NCBI GenBank assembly: GCA_044892525.1
Contig: CM097885.1
Span: forward strand, 20,834,001-20,898,000
DNA: 64,000 nucleotides
DNA from: Schmidtea polychroa
Lineage: Eukaryota
Direction of reading: 5' to 3'
The first letter of the stretch is position 1. Each line of letters begins with the position of its first letter. This document shows positions 8,284 to 9,093 of the stretch, piece by piece. A program made the translations under genes and the position numbers. The notes beneath the pieces were generated by a model. That model searched no databases and was not told the DNA's origin. It was given only the letters and a program-made list of their open reading frames with translations.

Positions 8284-8363
8284 GCCATTATAGCGGAGTG
8301 AAAATAGGCTTCAATTTTATCACCGGGAGTACCGGGTTCAATTTTCGATTTTGGTCAATTTTT
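8284..8363 (+). ncRNA. tRNA-like Pol III unit 1 (degenerate)
   Basis: A-box-like TAGCGGAGTGA at 8291, T-arm CCGGG-TTCAATT-TTCGA, partial acceptor pairing GCCA/TGGT, T5 at 8359. Confidence 0.45.
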
Positions 8364-8526
8364 ATCGATATTTTTTTTCAACGGAATCTGATTCAGCGTA
8401 CTGATTTTAGTATATATTTAAATTTTCAGATGGATCTGAGTGGTAGTTGTCGAGAAAATGAATAATTAATTATTAATTTCATCAATAAATAGTCACACAT
8501 TAACAACTTATTTTATATTGAGTATA

Positions 8527-8607
8527 GCTCTAATAGCTTAGTGGTAATAGCACTCGACTGCATTGCCAATACCAATGGGTTCAAATCCCATTTCGGTCAT
8601 TTTTTTT
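8527..8607 (+). ncRNA. tRNA-like Pol III unit 2 (resembles tRNA-Cys)
   Basis: A-box TAGCTTAGTGG at 8534, D-stem GCT/AGC, GACTGCA at the anticodon position, perfect T-arm ATGGG-TTCAAAT-CCCAT, T8 terminator at 8600-8607. The anticodon stem does not pair. Confidence 0.65.
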
Positions 8608-8763
8608 CAAATTTTTTTTAACGAAATATTGATCAGCATACTCGATTTAGTACTTGTACAAATTTTTAAGGAGATTGGTCAACGGCAACTCTTGGAAATT
8701 TAAGATCAAAAACGTTTTAACTACCAAAAATTAATATATCCAATAAAAAAAATATTTATAAAA

Positions 8764-9060
8764 ATGGATGAGTTAAAAGAAAGAATGAGAAATGAATTGA
8801 ATGAAGTTAAACATAAGAGAATGAAAAGAAGAGAAGAAGAACCATTAGAATACATCAAAGAGTTGATGGTAGATAATGAAAAGTATCGACATTTTTATAT
8901 GAAGGCTGTAGATGTTGCTGATATAAGATTGAAGAAAATGAAACAATTACAGGAAAGAGTTAAAGAACTTGAATCGATTATTTATAGTCTAAAAAATGAC
9001 AAAAATTCAAACCTTGATGGCGCAGTGGGAATAGACTGGCACAGTGGTTCAAATGGATAG
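8764..9060 (+). CDS. Small coiled-coil hypothetical protein of the Polinton
   Basis: 98-aa charged helical ORF with a TATAAAAATG start context like the other viral genes. Confidence 0.55.
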   Translation: MDELKERMRNELNEVKHKRMKRREEEPLEYIKELMVDNEKYRHFYMKAVDVADIRLKKMKQLQERVKELESIIYSLKNDKNSNLDGAVGIDWHSGSNG

Positions 9061-9093
9061 TGGTTCAAATCACATCTGAGGTTAGTTTTTTTT
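9011..9093 (+). ncRNA. tRNA-like Pol III unit 3
   Basis: Consensus A-box TGGCGCAGTGG at 9018, B-box GGTTCAAATC at 9062 (extra copy near 9046), acceptor pairing ACCTTG/TGAGGT, T8 at 9086-9093. Confidence 0.6.

Follow-up and report, generated by a model that had tools for sequence, protein, structure and literature searches.

Among the described systems closest to the locus studied here are adenovirus VA RNAs I and II, which form stable structures of about 160 nt, and the transfer RNA (tRNA)-like RNAs of murine gammaherpesvirus 68, in which cloverleaf folds are joined to microRNA hairpins; adenoviruses, in turn, share capsid and polymerase ancestry with the Polintons. The locus lies in a 64,000-nt stretch of the genome of Schmidtea polychroa (contig CM097885.1, positions 20,834,001 to 20,898,000 of the forward strand; hereafter, the window), where the right arm of a Polinton/Maverick element carries three tRNA-derived units between window positions 8284 and 9093. 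These units have in common with the adenovirus and gammaherpesvirus genes the presence, within a virus-like genome, of boxes resembling a type-2 promoter of RNA polymerase III (Pol III) followed by oligo-T, but they differ from both in showing neither a stable nor a conserved fold.

Pairs of A and B boxes that are spaced as in tRNA genes, yet belong to no functional tRNA, are also known from tRNA pseudogenes, from the tRNA-derived heads of short interspersed elements (SINEs), from TFIIIC-only "ETC" sites, and from tRNA-gene insulators. Like the SINE heads, the units described here owe their thousands of copies to a mobile element; however, their carrier is a 15-kb virus-like DNA transposon instead of a retroposed Pol III transcript, and oligo-T follows at once, with no SINE body or tail. 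They also resemble the subterminal tandem repeats known from the long inverted termini of Polintons and other DNA transposons, being 230–245 bp units of variable copy number near the ends, with the difference that the repeat unit here is recognisably derived from a tRNA gene. Finally, tRNA genes in Polinton-like viruses and virophages have been published (PMC12220804, with 558 Rfam tRNA hits and, according to its methods, 8300 genomes scanned), and a figure legend of an adintovirus article (PMC8502044) marks predicted tRNA genes in viruses of related groups. The former case is similar to ours in the presence of tRNA-type sequence, probably host-derived, within the Polinton/virophage assemblage. 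Nevertheless, the tRNAs of that work are reported with anticodons and discussed as decoders, whereas here one of three units reaches the tRNA threshold and none forms a cloverleaf; moreover, the units here belong to the tandem or terminal-repeat DNA of a Polinton that populates an animal genome with thousands of copies. An earlier sequence-only reading of the window was not aware of such Pol III genes having been described in Polintons. In the literature searches, no account was found of non-decoding, tRNA-derived Pol III cassettes in animal Polintons; in two surveys of Polintons/Mavericks of nematodes and vertebrates, the word tRNA occurs 0 times.

The same reading had proposed a phased array of three tRNA-shaped Pol III genes, selected either for making VA-RNA-like transcripts or for TFIIIC binding as a chromatin insulator. 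Our analysis led us to a different explanation, which we hold with about even confidence: the units would be relics of tRNA genes, now part of the tandem or terminal-repeat DNA of the Polinton arm, and multiplied passively.

Boxes, folds and repeats of the three units

Unit 1 (8284–8357), unit 2 (8527–8599) and unit 3 (9011–9085) all lie on the + strand. Their A-box-like words begin at 8291, 8534 and 9018, in each case position 8 of the unit, and GGTTCAA is found at 8335–8341, 8578–8584 and 9062–9068 (unit positions 52–58), with TTCAA 53 nt after each start. A joint pattern of both boxes (as reverse complement, TTGAACC N28-45 CACTNNGCYA) gave three matches in the 64-kb window, all of them at the units, and none of 100 shuffles contained any match. 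All three units fit TRGCNNAGTG...GGTTCAA at tRNA spacing. Compared by eye with the full consensus (A box TRGCNNAGTGG and B box GGTTCRANNCC, 30–60 nt apart), the A box is complete in units 2 and 3 (TGGCGCAGTGG in the latter, which also contains two GGTTCAAAT words), and the B box is complete in unit 2 and agrees in all but the last base in unit 3. In unit 1, the B box (GGTTCAATTTT) lacks the final CC, and the A box fits the consensus in its family form, AGTGGG, mutated to AGTGAA in the window copy. The TAGCGGAGTGA quoted as the A box of unit 1 in the sequence-only reading is present in the window but is a rare variant, as G is the base at 8301 in 41 of 44 aligned copies.

Oligo-T is found close downstream of every unit on the same strand, as a tract at 8359–8378 after unit 1 (T5 at 8359–8363 and T8 at 8371–8378) and as T8 runs at 8600–8607, directly after unit 2, and at 9086–9093, after unit 3. 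Depending on the end chosen for the unit, these runs start 2–3 nt (unit 1, T5), 1 nt (unit 2, T8) and 1–3 nt (unit 3, T8) past it. As background, T8 or longer runs start within 12 nt of 1% of the positions in the element, T5 or longer of 10%, and T4 or longer of 24%. The earlier reading had therefore placed the A boxes, the TTCAA words and the oligo-T runs accurately, and its spacings of 243 and 484 bp are also correct.

The term "tRNA-shaped" turned out to be applicable to unit 2 only. This unit, a tRNA-Cys(GCA)-type pseudo-tRNA, scored 32.4 bits against the Rfam tRNA family (RF00005; curated threshold, 29), and its counterparts in other copies scored 20.5–38.3 bits, most of them below 29. 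Its A and B boxes and T arm are intact and its anticodon loop is CUGCAUU, with five of seven pairs in the acceptor and two of five in the anticodon stem. In contrast, units 1 and 3 gave no Rfam tRNA match at E ≤ 10 in the window, nor at E ≤ 5 in 13 other loci. ARAGORN predicted 0 tRNAs in the window, and no Rfam family besides tRNA reached its threshold there. The fold z-scores against shuffles were −0.19 for unit 1 and −0.04 for unit 3, no better than shuffled sequences, and −2.45 for unit 2, the best fold of which is not the cloverleaf. None of the units showed a four-stem cloverleaf maintained through compensatory changes, nor is any of the three able to fold as a tRNA. Fold z-scores, covariation and Rfam searches likewise revealed no stable, conserved structure such as that of a VA-RNA-like non-coding RNA. 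What stands from the previous proposal is the descent from tRNA genes, as indicated by the Rfam match of unit 2 and by the restriction of the box pattern to the three units, together with the type-2 promoter-like boxes at tRNA spacing, the oligo-T runs, the location within a Polinton and the lack of decoding ability.

To judge from its sequence, unit 2 likely descends from a tRNA-Cys(GCA)-type gene. Its alignment with the host tRNA-Cys gene showed 47 of 77 columns identical, among them the run TCGACTGCA that spans the anticodon loop, and none of 500 shuffles scored as high; the acceptor and T stems differ. Host tRNA-Cys(GCA) is represented by about 1000 pattern matches in the genome (817 + 184), and the first 100 matches listed are all located in a head-to-tail array, mostly at 281-bp spacing, at C1:269250380-269286096. 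A sampled repeat of this array (701 nt) was recognised by ARAGORN as a canonical tRNA-Cys. An origin of the units from this host tandem array was also considered and found no support, as the tRNA part is similar but the spacers are unrelated (278, 22 and 58 of 300 shuffles as high).

Regarding the arrangement of the units, local alignment showed that units 1 and 2 with their spacers constitute a 243-bp tandem duplication (repeat 1, 8284–8526; repeat 2, 8527–8769; both on the + strand), with 157 of 255 aligned columns identical and a local score of 66, compared to 20.5 ± 3.0 for shuffled sequences (0 of 300 as high). The diverged downstream sequence that both units had been said to share is thus real. 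Between units 1 and 2, identity affects 14 of 19 columns in the A-box/D arm, 11 of 22 in the anticodon arm, 13 of 20 in the T arm and 36 of the first 55 columns of the spacer, so conservation of the boxes does not clearly exceed that of the spacer next to them. The supposed empty slot (8770–9010), occupied by most of an open reading frame (ORF) of 98 aa (ORF98), showed no similarity to the repeats (92, 300 and 166 of 300 shuffles as high), and consequently nothing indicates that the 2 × 242 phasing reflects a fourth unit that decayed. Unit 3 has in common with unit 2 the tRNA-like part only (0 of 300 shuffles as high), and no relation could be detected between its downstream part and those of units 1 and 2 (156 and 78 of 300 shuffles as high). 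Therefore, the array consists of a plain duplication plus a separate cassette, and the idea of three phased units with an empty slot has to be abandoned.

Copies, subfamilies and relatives of the carrier element

The carrier is a Polinton/Maverick of about 15.2 kb, beginning 5,222 nt before the left edge of the window and ending at window position 10001 (in-window part, 1–10001, unstranded), and exactly this span is matched by four other genomic copies at 97–99% identity. The Polinton context recognised in the earlier reading was corroborated by the gene set, the inverted ends and the target duplication. The element encodes a protein-primed PolB of 1383 aa left of the window and, according to Pfam-type domain evidence in the window, an A32-type ATPase (4719–5510) and an rve integrase with a phospholipase-A2-like domain (5522–6907), in addition to the major capsid protein. 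Its ends are inverted repeats (391 nt aligned at 91.6% identity, with termini AG...CT), the right one located at 9627–10001 (unstranded) from the alignment of both ends, and a 6-bp target-site duplication, AAAATG, flanks the element on both sides (right copy, 10002–10007, unstranded, from comparison of the flanks). The 5' part of the capsid gene, of the double-jelly-roll type, is found on the − strand at 7412–8227 (Pfam DJR-like domain, E 8.4e-13); in the window copy (gene at 7203–8227), the frame breaks after residue 266, being open for 274 aa, with the remainder in other frames, while many other copies have frames open for 428–456 aa. The three units sit in the 1.77-kb non-coding right arm that extends from the capsid start (8227) to the terminus, at distances of 600–1700 nt from the latter, and this arm contains four GGTTCAA words.

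The Polinton family of the window is very young and very abundant. All 40 of the 901-nt matches that were scored, from 1997 first-look candidates in the genome, were 99–100% identical, such identity among copies being due to the youth of the family. Exact genome matches amounted to 1907 for a 28-mer of unit 1 in its family form, 1329 for a 28-mer of unit 2, and 2920 for a spacer 28-mer upstream of unit 2, and a pattern for the 3' half of unit 3 matched 3079 times. The junction between the capsid ATG and unit 1 was found exactly 1357 times, far below the spacer 28-mer. From the sum of the exact-match counts for units 1, 2 and 3, the genome contains at least 6,300 cassettes in 781 Mb.

These copies differ in the number and integrity of the units. 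Alignment showed that nine bases (8524–8532, + strand), located between ATAGCT direct repeats, are missing in about half of the copies, with the unit 2 junction appearing 622 times without them and 648 times with them. Without them, unit 2 has no 5' acceptor strand, so lineages lacking this strand have multiplied as well as lineages that keep it. Unit 3 appears in many places of the genome as tandem pairs about 233 bp apart. One locus (L044, C1:12439-13409) presented unit 1 followed by three copies of unit 2, of which two come from additional hybrid repeats, each joining spacer 1 to unit 2, and one is the regular copy; this block (window 8239–8731) stands solo at about 12 kb on chromosome C1, without Polinton flanks. 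Two other copies (L054 and L056) lack 8722–8966 (244 bp), including most of ORF98; the length of this deletion is near the repeat period, and no homology was found at its break points. At C1:101975286-101979838, the unit-2 deletion junction is present three times on one strand at 2266-nt spacing, which suggests a higher-order tandem repeat made from part of a Polinton.

Three subfamilies (A, B and C) were seen, and unit 3 is present in all of them. Subfamily C, sampled at C1:7968309-7983381 (L075 and L076), has a target duplication AGAAAC, AGTAGTG termini as in the window family, and terminal repeats of 1178 nt that are 99.4% identical. Units 1 and 2 are absent from it, with 95 AT-rich bases between the capsid ATG and an ORF98-like start, and each terminal repeat contains two unit-3 cassettes, located between the terminus and the first gene and facing the termini, with four GGTTCAA words per arm. 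This layout agrees with the many inverted unit-3 pairs about 13 kb apart detected in the genome. Subfamily C is 68% identical to the window on the polymerase side and 98% at the capsid start, revealing that the Polinton families of this genome are mosaics.

To compare divergence, substitutions were counted by region between a window-type copy and three subfamily-B copies. The values were 0.9–2.6% for the capsid gene, 0.9–1.3% for 8228–8997 (units 1 and 2, spacers and ORF98), 12.8–15.1% for 8998–9084 (unit 3), and 3.4–4.2% for 9085–9626. Unit 3 is thus a divergence hot spot, and units 1 and 2 are unremarkable in this respect; a conservation island over the latter was considered and rejected, as their divergence is close to that of the capsid gene. 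For unit 3, 13 distinct variants were aligned, with the second B box and the 3' end used as search anchors. Variable sites were located at acceptor positions 3–5 and 68–69, in the D loop, at 27, 32–33 and 44–51, and in the T stem at 62–65. When these variants were placed on a cloverleaf, 45.2% of the cells were paired, compared to 45.9% in shuffled alignments and 52.6% when the partners were slid by one column, and none of the 21 pairs was altered on both sides. With neither an excess of pairing nor compensatory change, there is no selection for tRNA shape in unit 3; the T-stem covariation across copies that the sequence-only reading had suggested looking for did not appear.

Searches with the capsid protein recovered 27 proteins at 40–96% identity, and 15 metagenomic loci encode capsid relatives at 31–52% identity. 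In these 15 metagenomic Polinton loci, ARAGORN, Rfam (E ≤ 1) and the box pattern each gave 0 of 15. Two of these loci offer the clearest context, and there the capsid gene is separated from its divergent upstream neighbour by 74 and 48 nt, too little to accommodate an array of this kind. The units are therefore a trait of this lineage and not of Polintons at large, and conservation in related elements, as would be proper of a VA-RNA-like gene, was found neither in these loci nor, for units 1 and 2, in subfamily C. The closest foreign capsid relatives (P0002 and P0003) are 73–75% identical and come from elsewhere; P0002 (75%) is not encoded in this genome, where its best match is 76%. Protein searches of the genome for more distant families gave, among the top-scoring matches, copies that are 99% identical. 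No relatives were obtained when the capsid protein, PolB and the capsid alignment were searched against viral contigs. As a separate observation, one of the metagenomic relatives (L058) showed at 5436–5515 (− strand) a 48.6-bit match to mir-754 (E 5e-07), below the 84-bit threshold of that family.

Passive relics as the proposed explanation, and its alternatives

According to the explanation that we prefer, an ancestor of this Polinton would have taken in one or more tRNA genes along with their terminators, the tRNA body would then have decayed, and unequal crossing-over would have gained and lost copies. As the A box, the B box and the oligo-T are near consensus, TFIIIC binding and some Pol III transcription are plausible; binding of TFIIIC by the cassettes probably persists, and short, unstable transcripts may arise from some of them, which would be by-products instead of the outcome of a selected RNA function. 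A selected VA-RNA-like RNA, on the other hand, is not supported, given the lack of conserved pairing in the 13 variants of unit 3, the shuffle-like folds of units 1 and 3, and the 15 relatives without units. The sequence-only reading had itself listed observations that would speak against it, namely absence of the units from sister copies, a match to a dispersed host SINE family, or no box conservation above background and no transcripts. Two of these were partly borne out by the loss of the acceptor strand, the absence of units 1 and 2 in subfamily C, boxes no better kept than spacer, the lack of pairing, and the 15 relatives.

Several observations weigh against passive multiplication, itself an inference. 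In the 13 variants of unit 3, GCGCAGTGGG, GTGGTTCAAA, GGTTCAAATC and GGTTAG plus T8 are constant, single-copy mutations aside, and so are the A-box block and both GGTTCAAA blocks, as selection on Pol III signals would give. In addition, a T8 run directly after two independent cassettes is unlikely by chance (1% each), a point tempered by the fact that real tRNA genes bring their own terminators along. Unit 3 is also kept in every subfamily examined and appears symmetrically in both arms of one of them. All this would be explained if the cassettes, unit 3 above all, were selected as working Pol III units, either for short non-decoding RNAs, such as decoys or small-RNA precursors comparable to VA RNA or to the gammaherpesvirus tRNA-like RNAs, or as TFIIIC boundary elements that shield the inward-facing end genes (capsid and polymerase) from host chromatin. 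We consider such selection possible but on the unlikely side. In its favour, boxes and T8 stay constant in unit 3 at the same time as acceptor, D-loop, variable-region and T-stem positions vary, and the unit-3 zone diverges by 12.8–15.1% between subfamilies compared to 0.9–4.2% in its flanks. The presence of unit 3 in subfamilies A, B and C, twice per 1178-nt terminal repeat and outward in the last, points in the same direction, its location in both terminal repeats being consistent with the TFIIIC/insulator idea, and units 2 and 3 have consensus-matching boxes, spaced as in tRNA genes and followed by T8. However, part of the constancy of the motifs stems from the search itself: with the second B box and the 3' end as anchors, unbiased evidence is limited to the A box and the first GGTTCAAA block, and the counts are low. 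Within the unbiased columns 1–51, one of nine A-box consensus positions and about 12 of 42 others vary in at least two variants, a difference by hand count that is not significant, so the constancy of these blocks, the best point in favour of a working cassette, is a weak one. Similarly, the symmetry in both arms is trivial, since unit 3 is within the terminal repeat. Selection is further opposed by the lack of conserved structure in unit 3 and of any thermodynamic signal in units 1 and 3, by the loss of the acceptor strand of unit 2 in half of the copies, by the existence of a structurally complete subfamily C without units 1 and 2, and by the 15 related loci without units.

It is also conceivable, though improbable, that the repeats act as DNA, with subterminal GGTTCAA words as protein-binding sites for replication, packaging or integration, on the model of the host-factor sites in adenovirus terminal repeats, and with an incidental tRNA ancestry. 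The subterminal position (within the terminal inverted repeat in subfamily C), the tandem organisation with variable copy number, the four GGTTCAA words both in the arm of the window and in each arm of subfamily C, and the constancy of the first GGTTCAAA block of unit 3, which was not a search anchor, would all agree with this. Nevertheless, the left arm of the subfamily of the window has no unit (no pattern match in L043), the units are 600–1700 nt away from the terminus, the relatives do not have the motif arrangement, and no evidence was found for a candidate binding protein. Insertion of an independent host repeat, either a tRNA-derived SINE or a satellite, into the Polinton seems more improbable still. 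The solo block near the start of C1, the excess of spacer 28-mers (2920) over capsid-ATG/unit-1 junctions (1357), the AAAATT-like words on both sides of the unit 1–2 block of the window, and the existence of about 1000 host tRNA-Cys genes in a 281-bp tandem array could be taken as signs of it; yet such words are common in AT-rich DNA, the spacers are unlike that of the host array, and most unit-1 sites, in the stretch of C1 common to the match lists of both, have the capsid junction 65–66 nt away, by eye. Moreover, with oligo-T after the tRNA-like head, Pol III would stop before any SINE body. A tRNA-derived SINE, which would be dispersed independently of its carrier, with target duplications, and have no terminator after its head, was accordingly rejected, as oligo-T follows at once and most unit-1 copies adjoin the capsid start, again by eye. 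Finally, the probability of a chance resemblance in AT-rich DNA is practically nil: runs of T4 or longer do start within 12 nt of 24% of the positions in the element, but the box pattern was matched in 0 of 100 shuffles versus three times in the window, and unit 2 is above the Rfam threshold.

Neighbouring features and implications

ORF98 (8764–9060, + strand) is an orphan whose final 16 codons are read from unit 3. Pfam and protein searches revealed neither a family nor a homologue for it, and a hand translation of the alignment indicated that in some subfamily-B copies it seems to end earlier. Separate from the units, a strong hairpin was detected from its fold z-score at 9571–9618 (unstranded), just inside the terminal repeat. 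It has 17–20 bp and an A-run loop, with z-scores of −9.15 on the + strand and −6.52 on the − strand, and its partners 9579/9608 co-vary, from A-T to G-C, in 11–12 of 44 copies. A role as terminator or as cis element at the Polinton end is possible. The surrounding region, 9250–9632, is richer in G+C and contains several hairpins (for instance 9397–9462, z −3.06), with weak, sub-threshold Rfam matches. A 7SL-like piece was sought at 9230–9360 and at 10000–17700, with a negative result. Sequencing-run contigs were compared from three runs guessed to be RNA, none of the runs listed being on record as such, and from one of unknown kind. Contigs from the guessed-RNA runs cover the capsid gene, 9017–9170 and, at the highest depths and in two of the runs, 9325–9632, leaving units 1 and 2 almost uncovered; as these runs are not shown to be RNA, neither the cover nor its lack was used as evidence. 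Loose ends of A runs at 9549 and 9598 were considered as poly(A) tails and rejected, because they coincide with genomic A runs.

Directly to the right of the Polinton, a second repeat element spans 10091–17600, with inverted arms of about 1 kb (10091–11104 and 16737–17600) that are 92–96% complementary. It contains PolB fragments 32% identical to that of the main family and an ORF with a DUF7769 domain (11327–11617), and fragments of the same element are found beside another copy of the main Polinton family. Further along the window, a reverse-transcriptase fragment (23037–23726) and a proteasome-subunit exon (28542–28946) were found.

In conclusion, the known tRNA genes of Polinton-like viruses are read as decoders, whereas here the tRNA body is dead and the Pol III signals have been left and multiplied. 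A Polinton lineage that keeps such cassettes (A box, B box and T8) as working subterminal parts, with constant boxes and a drifting body, either for their RNAs or for recruiting TFIIIC as a boundary or auxiliary element, is in our opinion unlikely. If true, no earlier description would exist of a Pol III module in Polintons or adintoviruses, relatives of the VA-bearing adenoviruses, and the Polinton would thereby have scattered more than 6,000 TFIIIC-type sites across the genome of its host. A functional cassette would thus provide Polintons with a small-RNA or boundary module, in a mechanistic parallel to the adenovirus VA genes. Even if the cassettes are inert for the Polinton, so many consensus A and B boxes could affect the TFIIIC/Pol III landscape and the chromatin organisation of the host, as SINE heads do elsewhere.

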